Positions 13,859-64,000 of a stretch of 64,000 nt of DNA are shown here, piece by piece. The notes under the pieces were generated by a model that was not told where the DNA came from, ran no database searches, and saw nothing but the letters and a program-made list of their open reading frames with translations. A program made the position numbers and the translations under genes. The DNA comes from Polyangiaceae bacterium. Lineage in GTDB: Bacteria > Myxococcota_A > Polyangia > Polyangiales > Polyangiaceae. Every line of letters starts with the position of its first letter. The stretch's first letter is position 1. Where the stretch lies: contig JAXLYR010000002.1 in NCBI GenBank assembly GCA_046351325.1, positions 880,334 to 944,333 of the forward strand. Direction: 5' to 3'.

Positions 13859-13896
13859 GTCGAACGGCTCTTTCGTAGCATGAGCTCGGGCACGTC

Positions 13897-16741: not shown

Positions 16742-16745
16742 CGTC

Positions 16746-21623: not shown

Positions 21624-21670
21624 GGCCAGCTCGAATTGATGCCTAGGCCCTGGAACCAGCATTTCTTGAA

Positions 21671-21712: not shown

Positions 21713-21909
21713 TCCGTCGAAGCCATCGCTTTTGTTCCGCAGGCCCCCCATTGCCTTTTGCGTGGAAACTTCGTTTCCACGGGACTAGTTGTCTTGCCAA
21801 TTTGTCAGCGATGTGCTGCTTGCGAGCGGTCTCGCAGGCGAATAGTGTCCTTCGTAGACGGCCGTCGGGAATCGACGGTCACGCGAGTGGTTCTCGAGCG
21901 AGAGCGGCG

Positions 21910-23765: not shown

Positions 23766-23831
23766 GTCGAGACGCTACCACGCGGCGCGCGCAGGGACGC
23801 ATCCGCAAGACGAATCTGCTAGACGGAGTGC

Positions 23832-36870: not shown

Positions 36871-36877
36871 GTGGTGC

Positions 36878-45232: not shown

Positions 45233-45292
45233 GCGGTTCCTTGAGTGACGAGCGCTCGGCCGCGCAGGCGAACCCGTTATTGAGACACGAAG

Positions 45293-45664
45293 TCAGGTGG
45301 TGTTGTCGCTCGGGCTCAGCCCGTCGCGGTCATCACCTGCGGCCCCCACCGAAGGGGCTGCGATCTGGGGCCTTTCTCGTTGCGGCCTTGCTCGATGCGC
45401 ATCGCCGTGGTCCGAGTCAATACCGACGACTGAACCAGGGCGAGGGGGAGGGGGGTCGAAGCCCCCCGGATGGAACGGGTGACACCTACACAGGCGCTTC
45501 GCCGAAAGCAAGCTCCCCCGCAACACGCCATGGTCTCGCAAACACGCGATGGCGTAGCGAGAGCACGACGGTTGAAACCTGCAAACCGGGCCGAACAACG
45601 CCACCAACAAACGCGAAAGCGTGAGTTGATAGAGGCGAATCAGCGCGATGAGCACCCGCGACAT
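45293..45664 (-). CDS. yidD: Membrane protein insertion efficiency factor YidD
   Basis: [21 protein letters not shown]...[44 protein letters not shown] matches the YidD family. Long Pro-rich tail before the stop. Confidence 0.8.
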
Positions 45665-45695
45665 CAATGCCACTCCTCGAGCCCGAGGAACCCTT

Positions 45696-46103
45696 TCACG
45701 CGGGCGCGGGGCCGGCAACCCGATTGGCTCTTTCGAGCTGCGGGCGGAGCGCAGCGAGGCGTCGCTCGAGGTCACCGAGCGTCGCGCCGATGATCGTCGG
45801 CAGCGCCAAGAGCACCACGTCCACGTCGCTCGGGAAGGCGTCTTTGTGCAGGCGAAAGAGCGCGCGCAAGAGTCGCTTCGCCCGGTTGCGCGCGACGGCG
45901 TTGCCGACCTTGCGCGACGCGACCACGCCCATGCGACGACCCTTGCGCTCGGGTTGCCTGCGTCCGACGAGGACGAGGAAGGTGCCGCCTTGAAGCTTGA
46001 TCGCAGGGCGATCCTGCACGCGCCGAAAGTCGGCGCGCGACCGCAGGCGTTCGCTCTGCGGCAGCGTGTTGGAGCCCCCTGCAGCTGAAGTCACGGAGTT
46101 CAC
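45696..46103 (-). CDS. rnpA: Ribonuclease P protein component
   Basis: [28 protein letters not shown]...[25 protein letters not shown] matches the RnpA family. 135 aa. Confidence 0.85.
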
Positions 46104-46133
46104 GCAGCGCCCCCCGACGCCGACGCTCCGCGA

Positions 46134-46283
46134 CTACTTCTTGAAGACGCCCGGTGCGAGGCGAGCGCGGCCCTTGCGGCGGCGGTTGTTGATGACCTTG
46201 CGCCCGCCCTTCGTGGCCATCCGCGCACGGAAGCCGGACGTGCGAAGACGCGATACTTTGTGGGGCTGGTAGGTTCGCTTCAT
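46134..46283 (-). CDS. rpmH: 50S ribosomal protein L34
   Basis: Reverse-strand translation gives [49 protein letters not shown] (49 aa), a canonical L34. Confidence 0.9.
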
Positions 46284-46479
46284 GACGGTCCTCTTCGTAC
46301 CTCGAAACTAGGTTCACTCGAGCCCGAGCCTCAAAGGCTCATGGGCGGGAGCTCGGGGGCGAGCTCAAGGGCGCGGACGTTTAGCCCACTCGGTGGCCTC
46401 GGTCAACCGTTTCCCACAGCCGCGCGCAGGCCGAGAGAGTTGGGAAGCCCGAAGGAGCGTGGTGTAACCTGCGCGGTCG

Positions 46480-48198
46480 ATGACGACCAGCCCGAGCGCT
46501 CCCGTCTCTCGAACTCTCAGAACGCGCCTCGGGGTGGGGCTCTTGATGAGCGTGGCGACAGTGCTCTTTGCGCCGGAGGCCTCCGCGCAGGACACGACCT
46601 TCAGCTTGGATCGGCTGCGGATCGGCGGCGCTCCAGACGACGGGATCGGCGTCTGGCGACCGGACTTCAGCGATCGGCCACGGCTCTTCGGTCAGTTGGC
46701 GCTCGGCTTTTCGTGGGAGCCGTTCCGTATCGCGCACGAGCGCGAGGACGAGAACGACCAGGCGAAGCTCGCGCAGACGAGCGGCCCGCCCGTGACGGAA
46801 CAGTTCACGGGCTACTTCACGGCCGGCTTCGAGGTCTTCAAGCGCATCGGCGTTCAGGTCATGTTCCCCGCGGTCTTCGTCCAGACGGGCAACCCGACGA
46901 GCACCGCGTCGGTGCCGGGCGACTCGGTGGATCTCTCGATCGCGGCCGCCGGCGACCTGCGCGTCGAGCTGCGTGGCGCCATCATCGCGGACGACTTCTT
47001 CAAGCTCGGCGCCAACGCGAACTTGTTCGCGCCGAGCGGCAACGAGCTCTCCTTCGCTGGTGATCGCAGCGCGAGCGGCGGACTCGGCGTGTCGTTGGAT
47101 CTCAACTGGAAGGAGTTCATCCTCACGTTCGACACGGGCTTTCACTTCCGCCCCGAGTCGGGCGTCAACGACTTCACCGTGAGCCACGAGTGGGAGTACG
47201 CGCTCGCGGGCTTCATCCCCATCCGCGACAACCAGTTCCGGCTCGGCGTCGAGCTCTTCGGCTCGGTGATGATCGCCGGCCCCGACAAGGCCAAGGCCAT
47301 CACGTCGCCGCTCGAGTGGATGGTCGAGGGCAAGTTCGCGCTCGACTCGAAGAAGCAGCTCTACCTGACGCCGTATTTCGGCACGCGGATGACGCCTGGC
47401 TACGCTCCCGATTTCCGCACGGGCATCGGCTTCGGCGGTTGGTTCTACCTCGACAACCCGAACCCCCCGTCTCCGAAGAAAGAGCCGCGCCTCGATCCGT
47501 ACGGTGGCGACGTCGACACGGACAAAGACGGCTATCCCGACAACCAAGACCTCTGTCCGACCGAGCCCGAAGACGGCAAGCCTCCGGCGACAACCGACGG
47601 CTGCCCCGCCGAGAAGGACACGGACGACGACGGCATCCCCGACTCGCGCGACAAGTGCGTGCAGGTCGCCGAGGACAAAGACGGCGTCGACGACAAGGAC
47701 GGCTGCCCCGAGGAGGACGCCGACAAGGACGCGATCCTCGACGTCGAGGACGCCTGCCCGAAGGAGCCGGGCGAGCCGAGCCCCGAGAAGGACAAGAACG
47801 GCTGCCCGCGGTTCATCCGTCGCATCGAGGGCTCGACCGAGATCGAGATCCTGAAGAAGGTCGAGTTCGAGTTCGGCAGCGCGCGCCTGCGCGCGGACAG
47901 CCAGCCCATCCTCGACGAGGTCGTGCGCCTCCTTCAGGCGAACCCCGACATCACGCTCCTCGCGATCGAAGGGCACACCGACAACGTCGGCTCCGATGCT
48001 TTGAACCTCAAACTATCGAAGGATCGCGCCCGGGCTTGCCTCGACTACCTCGTGAAGAAGGGCATCGCCGCGAGCCGCCTCACCAGCGATGGCTTCGGCA
48101 AAGAGAAGCCGCTCGACACGAACGACACGTCGGAGGGGCGAGCCAAGAACCGCCGCGTGGAGTTCCACATCCGCAACCAGGACACCTCGGGCAACTGA
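46480..48198 (+). CDS. OmpA-family outer-membrane protein with thrombospondin type 3 (Ca-binding) repeats
   Basis: Signal peptide. N-terminal beta-barrel region. Repeated DxDxDGxxDxxDxC motifs (DTDKDGYPDNQDLCP; DTDDDGIPDSRDKC; DKDGVDDKDGCP; DKDAILDVEDACP). C-terminal OmpA_C (IEGHTDNVGSDALNLKLSKDRARAC...NRRVEFHI). Confidence 0.9.
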   Translation: MTTSPSAPVSRTLRTRLGVGLLMSVATVLFAPEASAQDTTFSLDRLRIGGAPDDGIGVWRPDFSDRPRLFGQLALGFSWEPFRIAHEREDENDQAKLAQTSGPPVTEQFTGYFTAGFEVFKRIGVQVMFPAVFVQTGNPTSTASVPGDSVDLSIAAAGDLRVELRGAIIADDFFKLGANANLFAPSGNELSFAGDRSASGGLGVSLDLNWKEFILTFDTGFHFRPESGVNDFTVSHEWEYALAGFIPIRDNQFRLGVELFGSVMIAGPDKAKAITSPLEWMVEGKFALDSKKQLYLTPYFGTRMTPGYAPDFRTGIGFGGWFYLDNPNPPSPKKEPRLDPYGGDVDTDKDGYPDNQDLCPTEPEDGKPPATTDGCPAEKDTDDDGIPDSRDKCVQVAEDKDGVDDKDGCPEEDADKDAILDVEDACPKEPGEPSPEKDKNGCPRFIRRIEGSTEIEILKKVEFEFGSARLRADSQPILDEVVRLLQANPDITLLAIEGHTDNVGSDALNLKLSKDRARACLDYLVKKGIAASRLTSDGFGKEKPLDTNDTSEGRAKNRRVEFHIRNQDTSGN

Positions 48199-52081: not shown

Positions 52082-52558
52082 ATGACGAACGCCGACCCGA
52101 GCTACACCTTCCCCCAGGCGATGAACCCCGCGACGCAGCCCTATGCGGGGTACGCGGCGCCGAGGCCCGCGCCACGACCGAAGCGAACCATCTTCGGCAT
52201 CATCGGCATGTTGCCGGCCCTCGCCGCAGCCGTGTTCGTCGTGCTCGCGGCCCGCCGTCTTTCTCTGCTCCTCGACGTCGGTGACGCCGAGAAGGAGGTC
52301 AAGAACTGGGTGGGCGCGATCGTCTACAACGGCGTTCTGCAGCGTCTGCGCATCTACGGGATCGCGGGTGGCTTCGCCGCGCTCTTGAGCTTGCCGTTCT
52401 CGCTCGTCGGCCTGCGCTCGACCGTCGGAAAGATCGCGCTCTTGCTCGGGCTCGCGTCGCTCGGTAGCGCCATCTACGTCGAGTACGCCTCGAAGGACAT
52501 GAAGTACTTGAACGAGGACAGCTTCCTCGAGAAGAACAAGCGCCGGCACCACGACTGA
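52082..52558 (+). CDS. Small membrane protein (Pro-rich N-terminus, three hydrophobic segments)
   Basis: ATG start. Hydrophobic segments TIFGIIGMLPALAAAVFVVLAA, IAGGFAALLSLPFSLVGL and IALLLGLASLGSAIYV. 158 aa. Confidence 0.45.
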   Translation: MTNADPSYTFPQAMNPATQPYAGYAAPRPAPRPKRTIFGIIGMLPALAAAVFVVLAARRLSLLLDVGDAEKEVKNWVGAIVYNGVLQRLRIYGIAGGFAALLSLPFSLVGLRSTVGKIALLLGLASLGSAIYVEYASKDMKYLNEDSFLEKNKRRHHD

Positions 52559-52597
52559 GCCTGATCGCTGTTCGAGACTCGCGAGGCTCGATGACGA

Positions 52598-53095
52598 TCA
52601 ATCGCAGCCCTTCCCGCACACCATCAAGAACCGGATCGCGCGGACGCGCAGGTCGAGCCTGCCCGGCGGCGGGGGCGGCACCTGCTTCCCCACCTTCGAG
52701 CTGAGCAGCTGGTGCACCGCGTGGTCGAACGTCGTGTTGCCGCTCGCGCTCAAGACTTCGTAGGACACGATGATTTGCTCTTCGTCGAGCGCTACAGAGA
52801 CCTCGGCCTTCAGCTTGGTCATCTCTGCTGCTGGGAGGCCGAGACCATGCACACGGAACCCACGCGCGAAGAAGGATCGAAGCCGGCGTTCGTACTCCTC
52901 GACCTCGGCTCGACTCTCAGCGCTGGGTTGATCGGTGGTCTTCGAGGGCTGGGAGATGGGCCTGCCGCTCTCCGCTGGCGAGGGCGTCGTGTCATTCCCC
53001 CGAACGGGCGGTGGCGGTGTGCATGACAGCAGGAATGCGAGCGCGCCCACCCACTTCGGCCCAACGCCGAGGCCCTGCGTATCGAGCGCTTTCAC
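52598..53095 (-). CDS. Hypothetical lipoprotein
   Basis: Signal plus lipobox ALAFLLSCTPPPP. 165 aa. Directly downstream of the KAS gene on the same strand. Confidence 0.5.
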   Translation of the reverse strand: MKALDTQGLGVGPKWVGALAFLLSCTPPPPVRGNDTTPSPAESGRPISQPSKTTDQPSAESRAEVEEYERRLRSFFARGFRVHGLGLPAAEMTKLKAEVSVALDEEQIIVSYEVLSASGNTTFDHAVHQLLSSKVGKQVPPPPPGRLDLRVRAIRFLMVCGKGCD

Positions 53096-53122
53096 GCTTG
53101 TAAGATACGCTGCCGTGAGCCG

Positions 53123-54406
53123 CTACGCGCGCTGGAACACGATCGCGCAGTTGTGCCCGCCGAACCCTGCCGAGAGCTTCAGCGCGTAGCGCGCGTCGAT
53201 GGGGCGAGCCTCGCGCACGAGGTCGAGGCCGAGCGCGGGGTCGACGTCGTCCGCGTTGATCGACGGGTGCGCGCGTTGCTCGAGGAGGGAGAGCACCGTG
53301 ATCGCGGCCTCGACGCCGCCGGCGCCGCCGAGCAAGTGCCCGAGCATCGACTTGGTCGCGGAGATGGGAATCTTGGACAGCGTCTCACCAAAGACGCTGC
53401 GTAGGACCGCGACCTCAGCGAGATCGCCCTGGGGCGTGCTCGTCGCGTGCGGGTTGATGTAGCCGACGTCGCCGGGCTGGATGCCGGCGCGCGCGAGCGC
53501 CCGCTCCGCCGCGAGGCGCAGACCGCGGCCGTCCTCGTGAGGGCGCGTGAGGTGGTCGCCGTCGCTCGTCATGCCGAAGCCAGCGACGTACCCGAGGATC
53601 GTCGCGCCGCGCGCGCGGGCCGTGTCCTCACCCTCGAGGATGAGCGCGCCCGCGCCCTCACCCATGACGAAGCCATTGCGGCGCTGGTCGAACGGGCGGC
53701 TCGTCTTCGTCGGATCGCCGTCGATGCTGCGGCCGAGCGCGCGCGCGTTGCCGAAGCCTGCGACCGTCGTCACGCGGGTCGCGGCCTCGGAGCCGCCCGC
53801 GATCATCACGTCGGCCTCGCCGGCCTCGATCATCAGCGTGCTCGTCGCGATCGAGTGCATGCCCGTCGCGCAAGCGCTCGCGATGTTGTAGCTCGGCCCC
53901 ATGAAGCCGTAGCGCATGCACAAGAGCGCCGGCACGACGTTGAGCATCACCGCGGGGATGAAGAACGGCGAGACGATGCGCGGGCCGCGCTCGTGCGCCT
54001 TGAGGATGGTCTCCTCGAAGACATCGACGGCGCCCTGGCCCGTCGACATCAGCGAGCCGACGCGCGCCGCGTCGACGGGCAACGACGAGGAGGCCTCGAC
54101 CTGCTCGTCCGGCTTGGGAAAATCCAAGCCCGCGCGCGCGAGCGCCTCGATGGCGGCGCCGAGGGCGAACGGCACGACGCGACCGAAGATCTCGCTCTCC
54201 TTCGGGGAGAGGTGCTTCTTCGCGTCGTAGTCGCGCACCATCGCCGCGACGTCGGTGCGCAGCTTCTCGGTCGGGAACTCGGTGATCTTGGTGACGCCGC
54301 TCTCGCCGCCGAGGAGCCTGCGCCACGTGGTCGGCAGATCGTGCCCGAGCGGCGTGACGGCGCCGACGCCCGTGATCGCGACGCGGCGCCTCACGACGCG
54401 CTCCAC
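53123..54406 (-). CDS. Beta-ketoacyl-ACP synthase (KAS I/II-like)
   Basis: Active-site Cys (NIASACATGMHSIA). His (HATSTPQGDLAE). Lys/His (KSMLGHLLGGAGGVEA). 427 aa. Confidence 0.9.
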   Translation of the reverse strand: MERVVRRRVAITGVGAVTPLGHDLPTTWRRLLGGESGVTKITEFPTEKLRTDVAAMVRDYDAKKHLSPKESEIFGRVVPFALGAAIEALARAGLDFPKPDEQVEASSSLPVDAARVGSLMSTGQGAVDVFEETILKAHERGPRIVSPFFIPAVMLNVVPALLCMRYGFMGPSYNIASACATGMHSIATSTLMIEAGEADVMIAGGSEAATRVTTVAGFGNARALGRSIDGDPTKTSRPFDQRRNGFVMGEGAGALILEGEDTARARGATILGYVAGFGMTSDGDHLTRPHEDGRGLRLAAERALARAGIQPGDVGYINPHATSTPQGDLAEVAVLRSVFGETLSKIPISATKSMLGHLLGGAGGVEAAITVLSLLEQRAHPSINADDVDPALGLDLVREARPIDARYALKLSAGFGGHNCAIVFQRA

Positions 54407-55299
54407 ACCGCGGGCTGCGCGCCGTCGCGGCCGGCGCGCCTCGCGCCCGAAAGCTGGGTGCTCAGCGCGCGCGCCTCGCGGGCGCGGACGCGTGCGGCGG
54501 CGAGCTCTTGTCGGCTCACGCCGAGCCGCTTCATGACGGGGAGGTAGATGCGCTGGATGAACATGTCGCGATCGACGCCTGTCTCCCGAACGTGGGCGAG
54601 GCGCTCGTCATAATCCGGCAGCGATCCGGCGCCAGGGCTTTCGAAGGTCGCGAGCACCTCGGCGAGATCCTCGAGCGCGGCCTCGCGGTTCTCACCGAGG
54701 AGCGCGTGCGTCGCGCGCTCGAAGAACTTGGCGTGCGCGTTCTCGTCCCGCGCGAGAAAATCGAAGATGCTGCGCAGGCACTCGTCGCCCTCGCGCATCG
54801 CGGCCTCACGGTGGCGCGCGTAGGTGAGGAACGTCGCGAGCTCCTGGAGGAGCGCGAAGAAGAGCATGCGTCGCGCTCCGCCGAGCGGCGTGCGCGCGCC
54901 GTCGACCGAGAACGGTGGTCGCCACGGCGCCTCGAGGACGCGAGCCTCGAGCGAGGCGAGCGCTGCGCGATCGCGGGCCCCGGAGGCGACGAGCCAGTCG
55001 CCGAGGGCCTGATGGTGGCGGACCTTCTCGGCCGCCCAGCTCGGCACGTAGCGAGCCGCCGCGGGCGCCGCACGCAGGAGCGTGAGCCCGACGCTGACGT
55101 AGTCGGGCAGGCCGCTCTCGATCGCGAAGAAGGTCTCGACCGCGAGGACGAGGCCCGCGCTCGGGCGCTTCGTCACGCGATGCCACGGGAGATCCTCGAG
55201 GCTCCAACGGCGCTCGACGTCCGCGCGCGCCAGCGCGGCGCGCGTGAGCTCCTCGAGCCGCCCGTGAGCGTCGGTCGATGCGAGCGAGGCAGGAGACAC
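54391..55299 (-). CDS. Ferritin-like di-iron carboxylate protein (acyl-ACP desaturase / R2-like)
   Basis: Two E...(D/E)ExxH-type blocks (LQELATFLTYARHREAAMREGDE and FLARDENAHAKFFERA). About 300 aa. Located between the ACP and KAS genes. Confidence 0.5.
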   Translation of the reverse strand: MSPASLASTDAHGRLEELTRAALARADVERRWSLEDLPWHRVTKRPSAGLVLAVETFFAIESGLPDYVSVGLTLLRAAPAAARYVPSWAAEKVRHHQALGDWLVASGARDRAALASLEARVLEAPWRPPFSVDGARTPLGGARRMLFFALLQELATFLTYARHREAAMREGDECLRSIFDFLARDENAHAKFFERATHALLGENREAALEDLAEVLATFESPGAGSLPDYDERLAHVRETGVDRDMFIQRIYLPVMKRLGVSRQELAAARVRAREARALSTQLSGARRAGRDGAQPAVWSAS

Positions 55300-55327
55300 G
55301 TGGACCTCGGGACCTCGCCGCGTCTTC

Positions 55328-55573
55328 TCAGGCCTGGACGCGCGCTTCGACCTTGCTGACGAGGTCGCCCACGGTCCGGATCTCGACGAGGTCCTCGTCG
55401 GGGATCATCACGCCGAGCTCGCTCTCCATCTCGCCGACGATCTGCATCATCGAGAGCGAGTCGATGCCGAGCTCGGTGATGACCGAAGCCTTCGTCACGT
55501 GGTCGAACCCGCGCTTGTCGACGCGCGCCGCGACCGTCTTGAACACACCCAGCAGATCCTTGTTGTCACTCAT
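55328..55573 (-). CDS. Acyl carrier protein
   Basis: ELGIDSLSMMQIVGEMESELGV is a Ser-containing phosphopantetheine-attachment motif. 81 aa. Confidence 0.85.
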   Translation of the reverse strand: MSDNKDLLGVFKTVAARVDKRGFDHVTKASVITELGIDSLSMMQIVGEMESELGVMIPDEDLVEIRTVGDLVSKVEARVQA

Positions 55574-55600
55574 GGCTGTCGTCTCTGGTCTCTCGAGGGG

Positions 55601-56458
55601 TCAATCGATGCGGCGCAGCTCGTACTGCGCGAGGGAGCTGTAGTGCTTGTCGAACGCGGTCACGCACGTGTCGAGGTAGCGCTCGTAGTCGAGGAAGAGG
55701 CGCTCGCCCCACTTCTCGCGGATCGTCTTCTCGTTGAGGCGCAGGCGGCGCAGCCACTCGCCGGTGGTCTTGCCGTAGTGCTCGCGGCGCGAGTGCACGG
55801 TCATGACCTCCCAGTAGGGGTTCACGGCCTGGATGACGTCCTCGAGCCTGGGGTTGAGGCCGCCCGGGAAGATGTTGTGCGTGACCCAGAAGATGTCCTC
55901 GAGGTCCTTGCCGCGGCGCGGGGTGCGGTTGCGCAGAATGGTTTGTAGGCCAAACCATGAGCCCGGCGTCGTGATCTCCCAGCACTTCTTGAAGTACTGG
56001 CGGTAGATGTCGATGGCCTTGCCCTCGCGAGCCTCTTGGGGCGAGCAGAGGTGATCCATCATGCAGATGGAGATGAGGCCGTCGAACTTCTTCTCCGGTT
56101 GCCACGTGCGGAAGTCGCCCGCGACACACTGGACGCCCGGGATCTTCCGAGCGTTGACCTCGTCGGCCATCGCGCTCGAGAGCGTGATACCGACCGCGTC
56201 CTTCACGTTGCGGGTCGTCGCGAGGTACTCGACGCAAGCGCCCCAGCCGCACCCGATGTCGAGGATGCGCTTGTCGGGCGTGACCTTCGCCATCTCGGAG
56301 AGGATGCGGAGCTTGTTGAGCTGCGCTGCCTCGAGGGGCTGGTCCCAGCTCTCGTAGACGGCGCATGTGTAGTTCATGCGCTCGTCGAGCCAGAGCCGGA
56401 AGAACTCGTTCGAGACGTCGTAGCTGACCTCGACGTCCGCCTTGGTGGATCCCATCAC
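55601..56458 (-). CDS. Cyclopropane-fatty-acyl / mycolic-acid-type SAM-dependent methyltransferase (CMAS family)
   Basis: N-terminal SYDVSNEFFRLWLDERMNYTCAVYE (compare the Cfa HYDLSNDFF block). SAM motif I ILDIGCGWGACVEYLA. 285 aa. Start overlaps the FAAL stop (ATGA). Confidence 0.85.
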   Translation of the reverse strand: MMGSTKADVEVSYDVSNEFFRLWLDERMNYTCAVYESWDQPLEAAQLNKLRILSEMAKVTPDKRILDIGCGWGACVEYLATTRNVKDAVGITLSSAMADEVNARKIPGVQCVAGDFRTWQPEKKFDGLISICMMDHLCSPQEAREGKAIDIYRQYFKKCWEITTPGSWFGLQTILRNRTPRRGKDLEDIFWVTHNIFPGGLNPRLEDVIQAVNPYWEVMTVHSRREHYGKTTGEWLRRLRLNEKTIREKWGERLFLDYERYLDTCVTAFDKHYSSLAQYELRRID

Positions 56459-58251
56459 TCTCCTCCGCTGCGTGCTGCTTCCAACGATGTGGCCTCGGTG
56501 GGCCGTGTGAGTCTTCGTGATCCCGCCGCGCCTGCGTCGGGGGCGGGCGGGGGCGGCAAGCTGTCGAGGTTCTCCTCACCCTCGGTGAGGAACTCGAGCT
56601 CGCCTGCCTCGAGGCGGGCCTTCGCCTCGCGTCGGCGGACCTTGCCGCTCGATGTCTTCGGGAGCGTGCCCCGCTTGATGAGGTGGACCTCGCCGAGCAC
56701 GATGCCGATCTCGGCGCGGACCAGCTGGATCACCTCGGAGATGACGTCGGCCGCGGTGCCGGCGCGCGGGCCGAGCTTGGCCTCGGCGACGAGGACACAG
56801 TGCTCGCCGCCCTTCTCGTCGAGGGTGCTGAACGCGACGCACTGCCCGTCGCGGATGCCGGCCGCGCGCGACGCGACGGCCTCGATGTCCTGCGGGTAGT
56901 AGTTGCGACCGTTCAGGATGATGAGGTCCTTGTGTCGGCCGCAGATGTGGAGCCGGCCGGCCGCGAGGTACCCGAGGTCCCCGGTGCGGAGCCATCCATC
57001 CGGCAGAAAAACCTCGGCGGTGGCTTCAGCGTTGTTGAAGTAACCGCGGGTCACGCTCGGGCCGCGCACCTGGATCTCACCGACCTGCCGATCGCCGAGC
57101 GGCTCGTTGTTCGGGCCGGCGATGCGCAGCTCGTGGTTGGGGAAGGGCTTGCCACACGCGACGAGCTCCATCGCGGCGCGCGCGCCCTCGGCGCGGGTCG
57201 CGCTGCCACGTCGCATCGAGTCGACGTCGACGCTGTCGGTGACGAGCTCTTCGTCGAGGCCCATGAAGGTGATCGCGAGCGTCGACTCGGCCATCCCGTA
57301 GCTCGGGAGGATCGCCTTCGGCGAGAGGCCGTTCTTCTCGAACCGTGCGAGGAACGTCCGCATGACCTCGGCCTGGATGGGCTCGGCGCCACAACCCATG
57401 GCGCGCATGCACGAGAGATCCCAGCCGCGCGACTGCGTCTCGGTGACCGCGCGCGCCGCGAGCGCGTAGGCGAAGTTCGGCGCGAAGGTGATCGTGCCGC
57501 GGAAGCGGTGCACGGTGTCGAGCCAGGTCGACGGCCTGCGGATGAAGGCCATCGTCGGCAGGAATACGACCGGCGTGCTCGTGTAGAGCGGCGCCACCAC
57601 GAAGCCGATGAGGCCCATGTCGTGGTAGAGCGGCAGCCAGCTGATGCCGCGATCTTCGGGCGTCGCGCGCAGACCGTCGACCATGATGGCTTGCGCGTTC
57701 GCCGCGAGGTTCTCGAAGCTCACCATCACGCCCTTCGGCTTGGAGGTGCTGCCGCTCGTGAACTGCAGGAACGCGAGGTCCTGGAGATCGACCGGCGGCG
57801 GGGGCTCGCGGTCGTCTTCGCTGCCGTGGGTCTCGGCCTCGAGCACGACGCGCGTGCCCGTCGCGCCCGCGAGGTGCTCGCTCATCAGATCGCGGAGCGC
57901 TGCGCTCGTGACGAGGAGCTTCGCGCCGCTCGCCTCGAGGATGTGGCGGACGGTGTCGCCGTAGGCCTCCATCTTGGCGAGCGTCTGCGGCGGGTACATC
58001 GGGACTGCGACGATGCCGGCCGTGAGGCACGCCATGAAGGTGAGGACGAACTCGTCGGGCTCGGGCAGGACGAGCGCGACGCGATCGCCCTTCTCGACGC
58101 CGAGCTTGTAGAGCGCCTGGGCGCGCTGGCACGCGGTCGTCCAAAGCTTCGCGAAGGGGACCTGACGCTCCTCGCCGTTGGCGCGGACGAAGGTGACAGA
58201 GCGTGTCTCGACCGTGGCGTTGTCCCGGAGGACTTGGACGAAGGTGCGCAT
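56455..58251 (-). CDS. Fatty acyl-AMP ligase (FAAL) / long-chain acyl-adenylate-forming enzyme
   Basis: A3 motif FLQFTSGSTSKPKGVMVS. A5 YGMAEST. A7/A8 TGDLGY. A10 KTSSGKVRR. I chose the MRTFVQ start. FAAL-type insertion region present. Confidence 0.85.
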   Translation of the reverse strand: MRTFVQVLRDNATVETRSVTFVRANGEERQVPFAKLWTTACQRAQALYKLGVEKGDRVALVLPEPDEFVLTFMACLTAGIVAVPMYPPQTLAKMEAYGDTVRHILEASGAKLLVTSAALRDLMSEHLAGATGTRVVLEAETHGSEDDREPPPPVDLQDLAFLQFTSGSTSKPKGVMVSFENLAANAQAIMVDGLRATPEDRGISWLPLYHDMGLIGFVVAPLYTSTPVVFLPTMAFIRRPSTWLDTVHRFRGTITFAPNFAYALAARAVTETQSRGWDLSCMRAMGCGAEPIQAEVMRTFLARFEKNGLSPKAILPSYGMAESTLAITFMGLDEELVTDSVDVDSMRRGSATRAEGARAAMELVACGKPFPNHELRIAGPNNEPLGDRQVGEIQVRGPSVTRGYFNNAEATAEVFLPDGWLRTGDLGYLAAGRLHICGRHKDLIILNGRNYYPQDIEAVASRAAGIRDGQCVAFSTLDEKGGEHCVLVAEAKLGPRAGTAADVISEVIQLVRAEIGIVLGEVHLIKRGTLPKTSSGKVRRREAKARLEAGELEFLTEGEENLDSLPPPPAPDAGAAGSRRLTRPTEATSLEAARSGGE

Positions 58252-58449
58252 AGGGTGTGGCTGTCGAAGCTTCGACACCCCGGCCTTAAGCGAAGGGTGG
58301 GCCAGCACCAAGAAAAAAGCGGTTCCCCGCGGACTTGCGTGAAGTTAGGTGGGTCTCGCCTCCACGTTACGCAGCGCGCCGCGTCCAAGATTCGTCAGTC
58401 GCATCAGCCGTGCGTAGCGTCGTACGCACTCCGGACGTTCACCCCAGGG

Positions 58450-59016
58450 TTACCCCGAGGCGCTCGATTCCAGGAGGCTCACGCAGTGAACGCGGAGCTT
58501 CTCCACGAGGCTCAGCGCAGCGTCGCTCGCGTCGCCGCGGACGTGCAGCTCGACCCCGGGGAAAAGAACGACCCGATCCCAGCGCTCGGCGCCGATGGGT
58601 GGGCGCGCGACCGCAGGTGCAGGTGGTGCCGCGGCTTGAGTCCGCACGCCGATCGCCGCCGCGAGCGTCGGCTTGTGCGCGACCGCCTCCAACGCGACAG
58701 CCTCGAGCTCGGCTGCGCTCATCGCGCCCATGCGGAGTTTGATGGCGCTGAGCCCGAGGCGCTCTCGCTCTCGAAACGCGCGCGCGACGATCAGCTCGAC
58801 GAGCTGCGCGCGCTCGTAACGCGTGCCGCGCGCGGCGAACTTCGGCGCTTTGACGAGCCCCTCTCGGATGTAGAGGCCTACGAGGCGATGGCTCACGCCC
58901 GCGAGCGACGCGAACTCCGACAGCGTCCAACCCTCACGCGGCTTCGCGCGGCTTGGCCGCCGATAGCTCCGCGAACGCACCAGCTTCCCACCGCGCCTCC
59001 ACCGCCTTTGCGCCAC
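58450..59016 (-). CDS. MerR-family HTH transcriptional regulator
   Basis: WTLSEFASLAGVSHRLVGLYIREGLV helix-turn-helix with a downstream coiled-coil-like region. The Arg-rich N-terminal 25 aa may not be translated, so the start is uncertain. Confidence 0.6.
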   Translation of the reverse strand: MAQRRWRRGGKLVRSRSYRRPSRAKPREGWTLSEFASLAGVSHRLVGLYIREGLVKAPKFAARGTRYERAQLVELIVARAFRERERLGLSAIKLRMGAMSAAELEAVALEAVAHKPTLAAAIGVRTQAAAPPAPAVARPPIGAERWDRVVLFPGVELHVRGDASDAALSLVEKLRVHCVSLLESSASG

Positions 59017-59046
59017 GCGCTCAGCGTAACGCGCGTCGCGTGCTCC

Positions 59047-59202
59047 GCTGACGAGAAAGAGGCTCTCAGAGCCCCAATCAACCGGGTGGATGACCTAATC
59101 GAGGCTCTCAGAGCCCTGAATACACCGGTAGACCACGTAATTGAGGTCGCCAGAGCCCCAATTAACCGGTCTGCCCACCTATTCGAGGTAGCCAGAGCGA
59201 TG
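59047..59202. repeat. Imperfect 42-bp direct tandem repeat (about 3.4 units) in the AT-richer intergenic region upstream of the MerR gene
   Basis: Units at 59059-59100, 59101-59142, 59143-59184 and partial 59185-59202. Each begins GAGG(c/t)(t/c)(c/g)(t/c)CAGAGCCC and contains aAccgg. No interspersed unique spacers. Confidence 0.7.
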
Positions 59203-59401
59203 TTTGTGGTCCTCGATCACGCAATCACCGCTGTGCATGTCGTATTTGCGCGCTCGATGCGTAGATGAATCGCTATCAGTGCGATGATTGCGTGCCGCGT
59301 CCACGTGATAGAGGCAGTAAACGCTGAGATTACGCGCCCTACAGGTGTAATCAGGGTCGGCGATGCCCCAAATGCGTTCGCCGAGCGAGCGCTCGTTGCT
59401 T

Positions 59402-59908
59402 TTACGGCGGATAGGAAGCGCCCGCGCTCACGGGAGTGGTTCCGAGGGCGCGCTGGAGCCGCCCGAGGTCCAGCACGAGCTGCGCTTGCGGTGGTGTCTC
59501 GGGCCCCGCGGCCTCGGCGACGCGGGAGAGGCCCTCCGCTACGGTCGAGGTGACGAAGTGATCGCGCGTGCGCCCGTGCAGGATCGCGAGGCCTCGCATC
59601 ACCGTCCGAACCAGCATGACGCGCAGGTCGTCGCCCACTGGGGTCGTGACGAGGCGACGAAGCTTGTCTCCGATCTTCCGCATGCGCACCGAGTTCTCCT
59701 CGCGCGTCGGAGCGTCGGGCGGGTCGGCCGTGGGGAGGATGAGCATGAAGCCCATCGCGGGCGCGCTGCGACTTGCGAGGAATTCGTCGATGCGGTCGAA
59801 GAGCCAGCGGGTGCGGTGGAGCTTGGCGGGGCTCTTGTAAACGATGAGCAGCACGTCTCCGCGCGTGGTCATTGCGACGCCGTCGAACTGAAGAACCTCT
59901 TCCCCCAT
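59402..59908 (-). CDS. Hypothetical protein
   Basis: 168 aa ORF with balanced composition (MGEEVLQFDGVAMTTRGDVLLIVYKSPAKL...). Not Arg-rich, unlike the spurious frames. No motif recognised. Confidence 0.4.
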   Translation of the reverse strand: MGEEVLQFDGVAMTTRGDVLLIVYKSPAKLHRTRWLFDRIDEFLASRSAPAMGFMLILPTADPPDAPTREENSVRMRKIGDKLRRLVTTPVGDDLRVMLVRTVMRGLAILHGRTRDHFVTSTVAEGLSRVAEAAGPETPPQAQLVLDLGRLQRALGTTPVSAGASYPP

Positions 59909-59955: not shown

Positions 59956-60546
59956 CTAGCGGCCCGAGAGATACCCGCTGAGGAGCCTCGTGAGCTCGGC
60001 CACGAGGAGCGGGTGGTCGAGGAGGTCCGGCCGGTGCGTGGCCGCGTCGTGGATGACTGCGTGCGCGGCCGTGCGTGCGATGAACGTCGCGAGCTCGACG
60101 TCAGGCACGCGGAGCAGGGGCATAACACGCTCGGCCCAGCGCAGTTCGCCCGCGCTCGGCGCGCGACGCACGCGCGTCGAGCGAGGAAGCTCCTCGGCGA
60201 ACACGCGGTGCAGCATGGGGTTCACCCGGTGCTCGCTCACGACGGCGTCGAGCAGAACGTGAAGGTAGTCGGAGAGCGTGAGCTTCGCCGGAGGGTCGGG
60301 CCACCGCTCCTCCATCGAGGCGATGTGCCGCCGCTGGAGCTCCGCGACGATGGCCTCTTTGTTGGGGAAGTACTGGTAGAGCGACGCGATGTTGACGCCG
60401 GCCTTCTTCGCGACCTCGTTCGTCGTGAAGCCCGCCCACCCGCGCCGCTGCAAAATGTAAGTCGCAGCTTGCAAGATGGCCTCGACGGTCGCCTGTGAGC
60501 GCTCTTGGAGCGGCTTCTTTCGTGCGGAGAGCGACCTCTTCGGCAT
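59956..60546 (-). CDS. TetR/AcrR-family transcriptional regulator
   Basis: N-terminal HTH QATVEAILQAATYILQRRGWAGFTTNEVAKKAGVNIASLYQYFPNKEAIV. 196 aa. Divergent from the oxidoreductase gene. Confidence 0.9.
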   Translation of the reverse strand: MPKRSLSARKKPLQERSQATVEAILQAATYILQRRGWAGFTTNEVAKKAGVNIASLYQYFPNKEAIVAELQRRHIASMEERWPDPPAKLTLSDYLHVLLDAVVSEHRVNPMLHRVFAEELPRSTRVRRAPSAGELRWAERVMPLLRVPDVELATFIARTAAHAVIHDAATHRPDLLDHPLLVAELTRLLSGYLSGR

Positions 60547-61215: not shown

Positions 61216-63081
61216 CTACTGCTTGTCGAAGCTCGACCCGCCCCACTTGTACTTGAGCGACTTCTGCGAACCCCAAGGCAGGAGGAGTGGCTCGACGCCG
61301 CCGACTGCGCTCGTGTCCTCGGCGAAGGGGTAGCTCTCCTTCGTGAAGCCGGAGGCTTTGCCTGGGGTGAGGGTGATGTTGCCCTTGCCGTCGTAGCTGA
61401 CGTTGCCCGTGACTTTGTTCGAGCCGATCGCGCGCGAGAGCTCGGCGGCGAAGACGCGGCGCACGCCGTCCTTCGTCACGCGGTAGACGAGCTCGACCGT
61501 GCGCTCGACGTCCTCTTTGTTCGGGCCCTTGGCCTTGAGGATGCCGCGGACGAGGATGTCCTGTTTGCCGTCGCCGCTGACGTCTTTGGTGGTGACCGTC
61601 TTCACGTCGCCGGCTGATGCGAATGGCAGCGAGACGTAGCTGTAGCTCGTGCCGCCCTTGTAACCGGTGCCGAGGACTGCGAGCTCGGTGCCGTGGACGA
61701 CGACGCGCTCGGAGGTCCCGTCCTCGGCGACGTCAGCGTTGACGTCGAATGCAGGGCTTCCCTTGATGCTGCGGTCCTTCTTGTAGGCCTCGTAGAGCTT
61801 GCCCGCGTCGACCTTGGGCGCGGTCGTCGTGTTGTTCGTCGTCGCCGTGGTCTTGGGCTCGGGCTTGGTCTCGACCGCGGCCTGCGGCTTCGTCTTCTCC
61901 GACTTGTCGAACGTGCTGCCCTTCAGCTTGTAGGTCTGGCTCTCGACATTGCCCCACGGCAGCACGATGGAGTCGAACGCAGCCTCGGTCGGCTCGGCAT
62001 AGCTCTTGGCGTCGAGCCCTTTGGCGGAGCCGGGCTTCACCGTGATGGTGGGCTTGCCGCCGTCGGAGCCGAAGGTGATCTCGTTCGTGACGGTGCCTTT
62101 CTCGGTCTCGACCGAGGTCTCGTGGATGAAGAGCGTCGTCGGGACCTCGGACGTGCCGAACGACAAGATGTGCATGACCTCGCGCGTGGTCTTCGACTTC
62201 GTGAAGCGCTTCGTGAAGACGAGGTCGTCGCGGCCGTCACCGTCGACGTCGCGCAGGGTCAGGCTCTTCACCGAGAGGGTGAAGCCCGCGGTCGCCATGT
62301 CGTTCCAGTAGTACTCCTTGCCGCTGCGGAAGTTGGGGCCGAGCACGACGAGGAACTTGTCGTTCACGAGGACCCGCTCCTTCATCGAGTCGCCGAAGAC
62401 GTTCGCGAGGAGGTCGGAGCTGGGCGTGCCGAGCTTCTTCTCTTTGATGAGGCCGGCCTCGAGCGATTGCTCGGCGAGCGAGCGGAGCGGCGCGAGTTTG
62501 TCGGTGCTGGAGACCGTGCCGACGACGCCCTCGACCGAGCCATCCCCGTCGACGTCGAAGACGAAGATGCCTGCCTTCATCCCGACGCGCGTGGTGCTCG
62601 CGCCGTCGAGCGCGGACCAGGGAAAGCTCGCTTCGAGCGACCAGCCAGTCTTGTCCGGAGCCTCGACGACCTTCGCGCCGGAGATGGCCTTGCCCCCGAG
62701 GGTTGCTTTGCCGGCGCTCTTGCCGGGGAGGCCTGGGACGAGCGTGACGGTCTGCGCGCTGCCGCCGAGCGACAGGACGACGTCGACGCGATCGCCGCCC
62801 TCACCACCCTTGAAGACGTCGTCTTTGACCTCGACGGCGACGTAGAGGTTCTTGTCGTCGAACGCGACCATCGTCGTCGCGGCGAGGTCGGCGCCGCCTG
62901 TCTTGCCCTTCACCGAGCTCGAGAGCGACACCGACGAGCCCGGCCACTCGCCGGGGATGCCGTCCATGTTCGGCGCCTTCTCCATGCGAGCGAGGTCGAG
63001 CCCCGCAGCGCTCGCTTGAGCGGCAAACAACGAGACGAGGGCGCACGAAGAGACTGCGAGGAAGGTTCGCGACACCGTCAT
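61216..63081 (-). CDS. Secreted FG-GAP/VCBS-like repeat protein with an internal duplication
   Basis: Signal peptide MTVSRTFLAVSSCALVSLFAAQASA. FG-GAP-like Ca-binding motifs (DVDGDGRDDLVF; DVSGDGKQDILV). Two homologous halves, each ending in a ...LPWG...KLKGSTFDK / ...LPWGSQKSLKYKWGGSSFDKQ module. Confidence 0.7.
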   Translation of the reverse strand: MTVSRTFLAVSSCALVSLFAAQASAAGLDLARMEKAPNMDGIPGEWPGSSVSLSSSVKGKTGGADLAATTMVAFDDKNLYVAVEVKDDVFKGGEGGDRVDVVLSLGGSAQTVTLVPGLPGKSAGKATLGGKAISGAKVVEAPDKTGWSLEASFPWSALDGASTTRVGMKAGIFVFDVDGDGSVEGVVGTVSSTDKLAPLRSLAEQSLEAGLIKEKKLGTPSSDLLANVFGDSMKERVLVNDKFLVVLGPNFRSGKEYYWNDMATAGFTLSVKSLTLRDVDGDGRDDLVFTKRFTKSKTTREVMHILSFGTSEVPTTLFIHETSVETEKGTVTNEITFGSDGGKPTITVKPGSAKGLDAKSYAEPTEAAFDSIVLPWGNVESQTYKLKGSTFDKSEKTKPQAAVETKPEPKTTATTNNTTTAPKVDAGKLYEAYKKDRSIKGSPAFDVNADVAEDGTSERVVVHGTELAVLGTGYKGGTSYSYVSLPFASAGDVKTVTTKDVSGDGKQDILVRGILKAKGPNKEDVERTVELVYRVTKDGVRRVFAAELSRAIGSNKVTGNVSYDGKGNITLTPGKASGFTKESYPFAEDTSAVGGVEPLLLPWGSQKSLKYKWGGSSFDKQ

Positions 63082-63329
63082 GGCTGGCGTTGGACGATGC
63101 TGCGCGAGAATTGTTCCACGCCGCAAGCGAGGAGAGCAGGCGCTGAGGCGGTCAGCGCGCGATCGAGCGCCGACGGGTGCACCTCGCATTTCTTTCACGG
63201 GCCAACCTTTTCGCCCTTGGCGAAAAGACATGGCCCGGCGATGGGGCCCCTCCCCATCCAGAGCGAACGGGGCCCCAACCCCGTCGCCCCTGACTTTGGC
63301 CGCCTCGCTGCTGGACTTTGCTGACAGAC

Positions 63330-64000
63330 TTATCGCTTCAGGCGGGCCTGCTCGCGCTGCTCTTCGGCCTCGAGCTCGGCGAGGGCCGCTGCGAGCTCGT
63401 CCTGCTCGGCCTTGGACATGGCCTCGGGGGCGGGGGCGGCGACGGGCGCGGCCTGCGCTTCTTTGTCGACGCGCACCTGCGGGGGCGGGGCCTTCGGCGG
63501 CTCGGGGGGTGCGACGCCCATCTTGCGCTTGAGCGCCATGAGGTCGTCGTCAGCGCCGGCCGTCATCTCGAGGTTCTGGAACTTCTGCGTGAGCGTGTCG
63601 CCGCTGTATTGCTCGTGGAGCTCGGCGGCGGCCTCGGTCTGGGCCTCCTGCTCCTCGATGCGCTTCTCCATTCGGGCGAAGGTGTCGAACGCGCTCGCGT
63701 TGTTGAGGCTGCTCATCGTGTTGGTGATGGCCTCCTGAGCCTTGGCTCGGGCGGCGCGTGCGATGAGCACGTTCTTCTTGCGCTTGGCTTCCTCGATCTT
63801 GTTGTTGAGGACGCGGAGCGCGTTCTTGATCTGATCGACGGCGGCCTTCTGCTTTTGCCACTGCTCTTTGTAGGTGGCCGCGAGGTTCTCGTGCTCCTTC
63901 TTGCGCTGGAGCGCTTCCTTCGCGAGGTTGTCGTCGCCGGCCTTGACCGCGAGCATCGCGCGACGCTCCCACTCGTTTGCGTTGCCCATCTCTTGCTCGG
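63330..64000 (-). CDS. PspA/IM30 (phage-shock protein A / Vipp1) family protein. The 5' end lies beyond the window.
   Basis: Coiled-coil sequence ...RRAMLAVKAGDDNLAKEALQRKKEHENLAATYKEQWQKQKAAVDQIKNALRVL...EKRIEEQEAQ with an Ala/Pro-rich acidic tail. The reading frame is open to the window edge. Confidence 0.75.
   Translation of the reverse strand, partial: EQEMGNANEWERRAMLAVKAGDDNLAKEALQRKKEHENLAATYKEQWQKQKAAVDQIKNALRVLNNKIEEAKRKKNVLIARAARAKAQEAITNTMSSLNNASAFDTFARMEKRIEEQEAQTEAAAELHEQYSGDTLTQKFQNLEMTAGADDDLMALKRKMGVAPPEPPKAPPPQVRVDKEAQAAPVAAPAPEAMSKAEQDELAAALAELEAEEQREQARLKR

Follow-up and report, generated by a model that had tools for sequence, protein, structure and literature searches.

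Does a compact operon in a Polyangiaceae genome encode a route for tailoring fatty acids while they are held on an acyl carrier protein (ACP), as mycobacteria do with their meromycolate chains, and would every step of such a route work in the organism that carries it? The operon lies on the minus strand of a 64,000-nt stretch of contig JAXLYR010000002.1 (assembly GCA_046351325.1, a metagenome-assembled genome), which we call the window, and its five genes are predicted to encode a fatty acyl-AMP ligase (FAAL), a methyltransferase (MT) of the cyclopropane mycolic acid synthase (CMAS) family, an ACP, a di-iron protein homologous to acyl-ACP desaturases (DES) and a β-ketoacyl-ACP synthase (KAS). 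With confidence a little better than even, we read it as a conserved Myxococcota cassette for fatty-acid tailoring on a dedicated carrier protein, probably served by a sigma-54-like promoter and, in this genome, equipped with a compromised DES. In the order in which they would be transcribed, the genes are as follows.

56455-58251, minus strand: FAAL, 598 aa, first gene of the operon
55601-56458, minus strand: CMAS-family methyltransferase (MT), 285 aa, with a 4-bp overlap with the FAAL stop
55328-55573, minus strand: ACP, 81 aa, after a 27-bp gap from MT
54391-55299, minus strand: di-iron protein, acyl-ACP-desaturase homologue (DES), 302 aa, after a 28-bp gap from ACP
53123-54406, minus strand: KAS, 427 aa, with a 16-bp overlap with DES

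The five co-directional open reading frames (ORFs) fill 53123-58251 exactly as an original prediction, made from the letters of this DNA, had placed them, and its description of five tightly coupled minus-strand genes with 4- and 16-bp overlaps was confirmed by the coordinates. Its five family calls (FAAL, CMAS, ACP, di-iron desaturase-like and KAS) all passed the Pfam gathering cut-offs, and the checks that it proposed on PF02353 for MT, on PF03405 against other ferritin-like families for DES and on conservation of the gene neighborhood likewise came out as it anticipated, with the values given below. The NCBI annotation agrees for three of the genes (MFO0548905.1, fatty acyl-AMP ligase; MFO0548903.1, phosphopantetheine-binding protein; MFO0548902.1, acyl-ACP desaturase). 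G+C content at third codon positions (GC3) is 0.88-0.91 in all five ORFs, in a window of ~69% G+C. No convincing terminator was found between the cassette genes; the terminator-like matches lie inside coding sequence (6 versus 2.5 expected). The genes that flank the cassette in the window encode PspA, an FG-GAP protein, a TetR regulator, a TonB_C lipoprotein, OmpA and YidC, which rules out a larger polyketide synthase (PKS) or nonribosomal peptide synthetase (NRPS) cluster around the operon.

That these genes belong together is also seen in their conservation. MT was chosen as the query for a locus scan, with one genome per GTDB species, because it is the best-conserved cassette gene; it turned up 197 stretches that encode a relative, of which 80 loci went into the analysis, almost all labelled Myxococcota or deltaproteobacteria and a few just 'bacterium'. 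FAAL, MT, ACP and KAS follow one another in the window order in 43 of the 66 loci with enough flanking sequence. Carriers of the complete cassette include Sorangium cellulosum So ce56 (MT at ~3,410,259-3,411,140 of NC_010162.1), S. cellulosum So0157-2, ~12 other Sorangium strains, Chondromyces apiculatus DSM 436, Polyangium fumosum and P. jinanense; the cassette was found in every cultured Sorangium genome retrieved, and Byssovorax has cassette genes on short contigs. Two metagenome-assembled genomes (MAGs) of other Myxococcales (L001 and L002, with DES 41% identical) have the five-gene order of the window. Across syntenic loci, identity to the window proteins is 70-90% for MT, 64-88% for ACP, 56-74% for FAAL, 57-75% for KAS and 38-50% for DES. 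DES sits between ACP and KAS in 29 of the 43 complete cassettes, and the other 14 have no homologue within 9 kb, so we regard it as an optional module; its absences fall in separate lineages, namely four close relatives of the window, a second group of MAGs, Chondromyces and all Polyangium.

The limits of the unit follow from its surroundings. Its flanking genes are housekeeping genes that vary by genus (PspA, FG-GAP, OmpA and YidC; in Sorangium, a GldG-like ABC system and a DUF255 thioredoxin-domain protein), which argues for a self-contained unit of exactly four or five genes. Further conserved members were considered and rejected, as the conserved neighbors inspected in Sorangium and Polyangium loci, whose families were identified by reading translations rather than by domain scan, read as housekeeping genes. 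In the window the cassette lies within a syntenic core-genome block in the order PspA, FG-GAP/CBM9 protein, cassette, OmpA/TSP3 protein, small ORF and YidC (the flanks at 43427-48198 and 61216-63998), which is common to the closest Polyangiaceae genomes and, in part, to Sorangium, and this shared block argues against recent horizontal acquisition.

FAAL, ACP and KAS were each compared with curated families and solved structures or equivalogs. The FAAL ATG start matches that of the 598-aa NCBI protein (the longest ORF extends to 58311), and the protein has PF00501 (243.7 bits, above the gathering cut-off) and the C-terminal domain PF23024, with the motifs TSGSTS (165-170), YGMAE (318-322), GDLG (424-427) and SSGK (534-537). 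Its best NCBIfam model is NF006624, 'fatty acyl-AMP ligase', at 515.3 bits, under the cut-off of 600, which marks it as a divergent member. Against solved structures it scores 340 bits with the E. coli enzyme 3PBK, 249 with Legionella 3KXW and 217-225 with FadD32, versus 125 bits or less with fatty acyl-CoA ligases, and it aligns without a gap to 3PBK over query residues 330-375, the approximate region of the FAAL-specific insertion. With a dedicated ACP kept beside it in synteny, FAAL is predicted to activate a free fatty acid and load that carrier. The ACP itself (PF00550, 45.5 bits) has its phosphopantetheine serine, S39, in a DSL motif at residues 38-40, and scores under the cut-offs of all NCBIfam ACP equivalogs (48.7 bits with the AcpM model, versus 146), so we regard it as a dedicated carrier and not a housekeeping AcpP or AcpM. 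KAS has PF00109 (143 bits) and PF02801 (108 bits), both above the gathering cut-offs, and an intact Cys-His-His triad (C179 in ACATG, H320 in HATST and H357 in GHLLG); it exceeds the cut-off of NF005589 (436.5 bits versus 387), falls under that of the fabF equivalog TIGR03150 (453.2 versus 493.75), and matches FabF structures at ~339 bits and KasA at ~206. It is thus probably a specialized paralogue, not the housekeeping FabF.

MT, the best-conserved of the five, has an active site that departs from the canonical pattern. The protein matches PF02353 at 180.3 bits, against a cut-off of 27, and has the S-adenosylmethionine (SAM) motif LDIGCGWG at residues 66-73. Its scores are 94-98 bits against CmaA2, UmaA and the cyclopropane fatty acid synthase (CFAS) of E. 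coli, and 81-98 bits across CmaA2, UmaA and MmaA1-2; it lies under the curated equivalog cut-offs (NF008686, 141 versus 400; NF040660, 118 versus 390; NF040703, 118 versus 650). It is short, with no equivalent of the N-terminal region of the ~380-400-aa cyclopropane fatty-acyl-phospholipid synthases, and its alignment to the 383-400-aa solved enzymes starts near their residue 110-120 and covers just their C-terminal catalytic part; an ACP-tethered substrate fits such a form well. When MT is aligned with CmaA2, UmaA, MmaA2 and bacterial CFA synthases, the bicarbonate pocket is found to be altered at two positions, D135 standing in for Glu and Q172 for His, and C32 and Y228 are kept, as are Tyr13 and Tyr30; the corresponding pocket residues of CmaA1 are C35, E140, H167 and Y232. 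The solved enzymes read S-x-G-x-F-E-H and L-H-T-I where the MT subfamily reads S-I-C-M-M-D-H and L-Q-T-I.

One of these changes runs through the whole subfamily: Gln172 is invariant in 83 of 83 sequences. Position 135 is Asp in 69 of them and Glu in 14, and at position 32 a Cys is found in 68 sequences, a Ser in the other 15. The choice at position 135 follows genomic context, with Asp in cassettes that contain KAS and in stand-alone genes, and Glu in a second, PKS-containing type of cluster described below. At position 132, clustered genes encode Cys and stand-alone ones Glu; we take this position to be the equivalent of E. coli G236 and Hma E146, the product-determining site that separates hydroxymycolate synthase from cyclopropane synthases. 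Given the replacement of His by Gln and of Glu by Asp, cyclopropanation is not assured; on its residues MT is a member of the CMAS family and not a canonical cyclopropane synthase, with a product that cannot be named from sequence. Members of the subfamily, Gln172 included, are also encoded singly in Myxococcaceae, Sandaracinaceae and other genomes (L070, L071, L075-L083, L086 and L087), and in the Myxococcaceae-type genomes, as in the others, MT stands alone in unrelated contexts; Glu132 in these genes hints at a different product chemistry.

From these assignments we propose the following pathway. FAAL would adenylate a free long-chain fatty acid and transfer the acyl group to S39 of the dedicated ACP, after which the short-form MT would use SAM to methylate a cis double bond in the ACP-bound chain, giving a cyclopropane, a methylene group, a methyl branch or a rearranged product. 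The FabF-type KAS would then condense the tailored acyl-ACP with malonyl-ACP, adding two carbons. As the operon includes no reductase, dehydratase, enoyl reductase, thioesterase or acyltransferase, and no release or transfer enzyme, the KAS product would be handed to the general type II fatty acid synthase (FAS-II) and lipid assembly. In Sorangium, Byssovorax and others, an intact DES probably installs the olefin on the acyl-ACP; in the window genome, where DES appears compromised, the olefin would most likely arrive with an already unsaturated fatty acid. Transcription would most likely start at the conserved sigma-54-like promoter just upstream of FAAL, and a MerR gene and a tandem repeat farther upstream would be lineage-specific neighbors.

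A different destination for the product is raised by more distant relatives of the cassette. In five loci whose MT is 62-68% identical to that of the window (L057, L064, L066, L072 and L073), FAAL, MT and ACP are followed by a type I PKS of 2000-2300 aa that replaces KAS. The two of these PKSs that were scanned (L057, 8197-14493; L066, 7073-17047) contain ketosynthase, acyltransferase, ketoreductase and dehydratase domains and end in an α-oxoamine-synthase (AOS) domain, which scores 300-336 bits with the BioF, serine palmitoyltransferase (SPT) and KBL models, all under their cut-offs. An acyltransferase-like (2-oxoacid_dh-like) protein or a phosphopantetheinyl transferase follows the PKS, and the clusters look like an uncharacterized pathway for a methyl-tailored amino lipid or sphingoid-like lipid. 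They differ in their desaturases: some have a soluble DES, and L066 has a short-chain dehydrogenase/reductase and a membrane desaturase (PF00487) immediately upstream of MT. That two non-homologous desaturases (PF03405 and PF00487) have been recruited beside MT makes a good comparative case that the methyltransferase acts on a freshly made olefin, in a desaturate-then-methylate logic, and together with family membership the presence of desaturase genes beside MT in several lineages suggests that MT methylates a cis-olefin of the acyl chain.

The same clusters could mean that the cassette is the front end of a specialized lipid pathway, of the amino-lipid or sphingoid-base type or another, and not a supplier of membrane fatty acids, its C2-extended acyl-ACP being used by an enzyme encoded elsewhere, such as an SPT-like α-oxoamine synthase. 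The arrangement of FAAL, MT, ACP and in some cases a desaturase with an AOS-terminated PKS, the acyltransferase-like protein or phosphopantetheinyl transferase behind it, and the missing release enzyme in the KAS-type operon would all suit such a pathway. Bacterial sphingolipid clusters use a dedicated ACP and an acyl-ACP synthetase. The outer membrane of S. cellulosum So ce56 is reportedly rich in sphingolipids and free of lipopolysaccharide (Keck et al. 2011). Against this, no α-oxoamine synthase was found among the window ORFs scanned, nor among the neighbor families of KAS-type cassettes that were inspected, a minority of families whose translations were read without a domain scan; the AOS domains of the PKSs lie under every curated cut-off, so that their amino-acid substrate cannot be assigned; and MT residue 135 differs between the two cluster types, D in the KAS-type and E in the PKS-type. 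We therefore hold this destination to be rather unlikely, while keeping it in view.

The original prediction had gone further than a tailoring cassette and proposed that the full scheme is active here, with DES desaturating the acyl-ACP, the CMAS enzyme cyclopropanating it, KAS extending it, and the MerR regulator and tandem repeat in control. We consider this unlikely, in part because of DES and the upstream region. DES belongs to the right family: it matches PF03405 at 55.1 bits (cut-off 22.7), its AlphaFold2 model (pLDDT 88.9, from a 20-sequence alignment) is closest in fold to plant acyl-ACP desaturases (TM 0.64-0.72) and M. tuberculosis DesA2, which make up the top 20 Foldseek matches, with R2 and R2lox proteins coming next, and this combination of Pfam match and fold rules out a haem-oxygenase-like or TenA-like protein, an identity that the prediction had named as refuting it. 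Its metal site comprises E61, K92, H95, E153, E186 and H189, so that five of the six ligand positions are kept and the E, ExxH, E, ExxH set is broken by K92 at the position of the bridging Glu. The Lys lies in the motif E91-K92-V-R-H95, is encoded by AAG at 55026-55024, and aligns with the bridging Glu of the castor desaturase, which we take to be E143 (the numbering offset was checked against the alignment). The metal-free R2 protein of class Ie ribonucleotide reductase also has a Lys at a bridging-Glu position.

The substitution is part of a wider pattern among orthologues. The canonical ligand set E / EExxH / QE / DExxH is found in 37 of 44 DES cassette orthologues, including those of Sorangium, and Lys occupies the bridging position in the window and six relatives (L010, L011, L014, L016, L017 and L019), a clade in which members show further ligand changes (E61H, H95R, E186D and H189I), alongside the outright losses of the gene described above. 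Within this clade, nonsynonymous divergence (dN) is 0.32-0.57 for DES, 0.05-0.13 for MT and ~0.1-0.25 for FAAL and KAS, so that DES diverges ~4-fold faster than MT, and in the clade with canonical ligands it is 0.07-0.17 for DES, on par with MT. We rely on relative dN and not on absolute ratios, because dN/dS is a rough Nei-Gojobori estimate with synonymous divergence (dS) near saturation and strong GC3 bias. With Lys at a bridging carboxylate and fast evolution combined, the window DES is probably not a normal O2-activating di-iron desaturase; its sequence would fit either relaxed constraint en route to loss or a repurposed protein. The family as a whole is small, with 353 representatives at E <= 1e-3 and 14 at E < 1e-30 in an exhaustive HMMER search of 1.84 billion proteins; a word-indexed homologue search matched the query alone, and distant members of the family are stand-alone genes in unrelated contexts.

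Control by the MerR regulator can be judged from the upstream region, where the relevant features, from the distal end towards FAAL, are these.

59067-59198, upstream of MerR: tandem repeat, 42 bp x 3.1, TRF score 123
58450-59016, minus strand: MerR-family ORF, 188 aa, PF13411 at 32 bits
58381-58427, minus strand: upstream regulatory block, ~90 nt upstream of the -24 element, candidate activator site
58287-58304, minus strand: sigma-54-like -24/-12 element TGGCCCACCCTTCGCTTA, with GG at 58303-58302 and GC at 58291-58290, 53 nt upstream of the FAAL ATG
58262-58277, minus strand: perfect palindrome TGTCGAA-GC-TTCGACA (TGTCGAAGCTTCGACA), between the promoter-like element and the FAAL ATG, candidate operator

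The MerR ORF is co-directional with the operon and lies just 198 bp upstream of the FAAL ATG, an arrangement that speaks for the full scheme. Set against it, none of the 80 related loci has a MerR homologue within 9 kb of its cassette, nor is the cassette accompanied elsewhere by homologues of the TetR, of the TonB_C lipoprotein or of a 168-aa ORF that lies beyond the repeat. The 42-bp repeat motif (three copies, 67-75% identity) was found neither in the 87 loci fetched nor at other places in the window. The closest relatives have FAAL directly or almost directly after the FG-GAP gene, and the MerR block looks like a lineage-specific insertion; membership of MerR in the cassette system is not supported.

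MerR lies upstream of what appears to be the native regulatory block of the cassette, and relatives can be aligned over the 170 nt that precede the FAAL ATG. There cTGGCCC-N4-TTCGCTTA (TGGCCC-N5-TCGCT, 58304-58287), aligned in 11 close loci, comes after a T-rich tract, and its GG-N10-GC spacing matches that of sigma-54 -24/-12 promoters; 48 of 61 loci show a loose GG-N10-GC pattern upstream of FAAL, where 0.14 would be expected per 300 nt. The palindrome TGTCGAAGCTTCGACA is kept in the window, L010, L011, L014, L016 and L019. Farther upstream, the block at 58381-58427 holds GCGTA-N-CTACGC (58427-58412) and TGACGAAtcTTGGACGC (58397-58381), the latter a one-mismatch copy of the CGAA-N2-TTCG palindrome of the relatives, which ~36 of 61 loci, all Sorangium genomes among them, have upstream of FAAL, at a background of 0.014 per 300 nt. 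At the level of motifs, we infer that the cassette is under sigma-54 and activator control. No sigma-70-like promoter was found in 52300-59500, weak evidence given that the scan covered spacers of 16-18 nt and would miss a MerR-type spacer of 19-20 nt, and the leader has no Rfam match at E <= 0.1, whether to a riboswitch or to another known RNA.

Taken together, the full scheme keeps in its favor the PF03405 membership and desaturase fold of DES, five of its six ligand positions with E91 next to K92, an intact ORF with a rough dN/dS below 1, and the nearby MerR; what weighs against it are the Lys, the additional ligand and gene losses, the ~4-fold excess of dN over that of MT, an MT without the pocket His and Glu, a MerR and a repeat that relatives lack, and a conserved sigma-54-like promoter downstream of MerR where a sigma-70-type promoter was not found. 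Its parts fared differently. That MT cyclopropanates or methyl-branches its substrate stands as far as the CMAS family and the short form go, and is put in doubt by the Gln and Asp of the pocket, so that the loss of bicarbonate-pocket residues, which the prediction had named as refuting it, applies in part; that the di-iron protein desaturates acyl-ACP holds for its family, its fold and the ligands of its orthologues, and weakens with K92, the fast evolution and the optional presence of the gene. Desaturation followed by methylation fits the system as a whole, with two types of desaturase beside MT, and not the window genome. The proposed MerR control is not supported, as the cassette has its own conserved sigma-54-like region and MerR is beside none of the related cassettes; the tandem-repeat promoter region is a real 42-bp repeat that is not conserved.

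Several features near the repeat and elsewhere in the window were noted alongside. Each 42-bp unit holds a GGCTCT-N-AGAGCC-type dyad, and the repeat lies in an AT-richer intergenic stretch between MerR and the 168-aa ORF, which has no assigned function (59402-59908, minus strand). The phasing of the dyads by 42 bp, ~four helical turns, suggests a multi-site operator for MerR or for the nearby TetR (59956-60546). A sigma-54 enhancer-binding protein with an FHA domain is encoded at 22431-23774 (minus strand), at a distance of ~35 kb from the cassette. The protein encoded at 33595-36912 (minus strand), 1105 aa long, is an ABC transporter fusion that joins two FHA domains to an ABC ATPase and an ABC-2 permease.

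Equally unlikely, in our judgement, is a broader proposal in which FAAL, MT, ACP and the optional desaturase form a portable module that tailors starter units and feeds either a FabF-type KAS, in Polyangiaceae, or a PKS with an SPT-like end. The product would then be a methyl-tailored chain that ends up in sphingoid lipids or amino lipids of the outer membrane, which is unusual in myxobacteria, and not in ordinary phospholipid fatty acids, the Gln/Asp pocket of MT would yield a product other than cyclopropane, and the K92 clade would represent a repurposed ferritin-like protein whose metal site is altered or empty, not a decaying gene.

Very improbable is a reading in which DES performs some other oxidation on the acyl-ACP, such as CylC-type halogenation or a hydroxylation, with the ligand change as an open coordination site. 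FAAL, ACP and a di-metal enzyme are also the arrangement of CylA/B/C and NocL/M/O (PMC12101540), and K92 is common to seven sequences and so is not a one-off. The CylC family has an AurF-like site with QExxH and HxxDExxH motifs and three His and three Glu, however, where the DES family has EESKH and RDExAH, and on these motifs we rejected a CylC/AurF-type halogenase; the best sequence and fold matches of DES are acyl-ACP desaturases, and the members of the K clade lose different ligands, which resembles decay and not a new conserved site. Scarcely credible, finally, is a fortuitous adjacency of ordinary housekeeping lipid paralogues with no joint pathway: each gene does come from a large family of housekeeping type, yet the recurrence of the gene order in dozens of independent genomes is far beyond chance, with identical order and spacing in 43 loci of many genera with differing flanks, overlaps of the translational-coupling type and a dedicated ACP under all AcpP cut-offs, so that synteny effectively refutes it.

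The reading that we prefer, a conserved tailoring cassette with a compromised DES in the window, has to be weighed against several points that count against it. Its pathway steps are drawn from family membership and synteny. The MT pocket departs from those of all characterized CMAS enzymes, and methylation of an olefin is an extrapolation for that reason. The order in which MT precedes KAS is an assumption, and the fate of the KAS product is a guess, given an operon with no release or transfer enzyme. The DES ORF is intact, with normal GC3 and a rough dN/dS of 0.15-0.65, below 1, and is thus not a dead pseudogene; conceivably the neighboring E91 substitutes as a ligand or DES has a new function, and a canonical desaturase paralogue may lie outside the 64-kb window. 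In the promoter, the -12 region TTCGCT departs from the sigma-54 consensus, TTGCW.

Full-text literature searches found no paper that describes the operon or a matching lipid, and we regard the cassette as a conserved, uncharacterized lipid-tailoring variant of known logic and not as a new category. In the mycolate pathway an olefin is modified on the carrier-bound chain during elongation, and meromycolate tailoring in mycobacteria (CmaA1/2, PcaA, MmaA1-4, UmaA, AcpM, KasA/KasB and FadD32) is the system closest in logic. The cassette resembles it in having a dedicated ACP, an elongating KAS, a FAAL and a short MT of ~285 aa that, like the mycolate methyltransferases, has no counterpart to the N-terminal part of phospholipid CFA synthases. 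It differs in being packed into a single compact operon of a Gram-negative Myxococcota, in a KAS that is closer to FabF than to KasA (339 versus 206 bits), and in an MT with Gln and Asp where every solved mycolate methyltransferase has His and Glu; it scores under the curated cut-offs for mycolate methyltransferases ('mycolic_MTase', 118 versus 390), AcpM (48.7 versus 146) and KasA/B, and it has no Pks13-type condensation and no sign of very long chains. With E. coli-type Cfa, MT shares the PF02353 catalytic domain, the SAM motif and the Cys and Tyr residues, and differs at three pocket positions of the computed alignment, where H266 is replaced by Gln, E239 by Asp and G236 by Cys, in what we take to be the Cfa numbering.

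DES in turn resembles the soluble acyl-ACP desaturases (the plant stearoyl-ACP delta-9 desaturase and M. tuberculosis DesA1/DesA2) in its PF03405 domain and in its fold (castor, ivy and Thunbergia enzymes and DesA2, TM 0.60-0.72), and in Sorangium and elsewhere its orthologues have the complete E, ExxH, E, ExxH set. It is shorter than the plant enzymes (~270-300 aa) and 18-20% identical to them, belongs to a rare subfamily encoded beside its own ACP and FAAL, and in the window its first ExxH has Lys92 in place of the bridging Glu. The nearest precedent that has been demonstrated is FshA/FshE/FshF of the fischerazole pathway of Fischerella, in which a FAAL loads a stand-alone ACP and FshF, of the CFAS/CMAS family, acts on the ACP-tethered unsaturated acyl chain, with a desaturase gene in the cluster and enzymes containing a ketosynthase to follow (PMC13548996). 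The fsh genes form a PKS/NRPS lipopeptide cluster with halogenases and a membrane-type desaturase, and FshF forms a vinyl branch by rearrangement (PMC13548996); unlike it, the cassette has no NRPS, PKS or halogenase and continues with a FabF-type KAS, and FshF is likened to MT by function, not by sequence. CylA/CylB/CylC and NocL/NocM/NocO likewise have a ferritin-like di-metal enzyme, encoded next to the ACP, that acts on an unactivated carbon of the acyl-ACP once the FAAL has loaded it (PMC12101540), and the difference is that the CylC and NocO halogenases are AurF-like, the cassette DES desaturase-like.

Two further groups of genes in the window also concern lipids or the operon's surroundings. 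A putative lipoprotein of 165 aa is encoded at 52598-53095 (minus strand), with an LSC lipobox-like motif, a proline-rich linker and a TonB_C-like domain (PF13103, 30 bits); its start is 27 bp past the KAS stop, it is absent beside the cassette in other loci, and it may be co-transcribed with the cassette in the window. At 16713-18971 and 19647-21623 (plus strand) are two divergent FabF-like ketosynthases of 752 and 658 aa, both with a C-terminal extension of ~250-350 aa that has no Pfam match and both under every NCBIfam cut-off; near them are an enoyl-CoA hydratase gene (15361-16248, minus strand) and ORFs at 13879-15360 and 21670-22419 that could not be annotated. This group may be a second, unrelated lipid or polyketide module.

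For the window, these results mean that the operon is real, and that neither control by MerR nor the desaturation step can be taken for granted. More widely, the cassette is a core-genome feature of Polyangiaceae, near yidC and ompA, with no lipid linked to it in the literature searched, and it points to a methyl-tailored lipid, not yet tied to genes, in a well-studied group of producers. It can be tested in a cultured carrier, S. cellulosum So ce56; a 2025 paper gives a method for electroporating the species (PMC12391302). The MT subfamily with its invariant Gln could widen the chemistry of the CMAS family on ACP-bound substrates, for which FshF is the only such case that we found in the literature searched, and the intact, ligand-mutated and deleted forms of DES offer a natural series for the loss or repurposing of di-iron enzymes. 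Together with the alternative KAS and PKS-AOS back ends, that series gives clear hypotheses about what the cassette makes and how it has changed.

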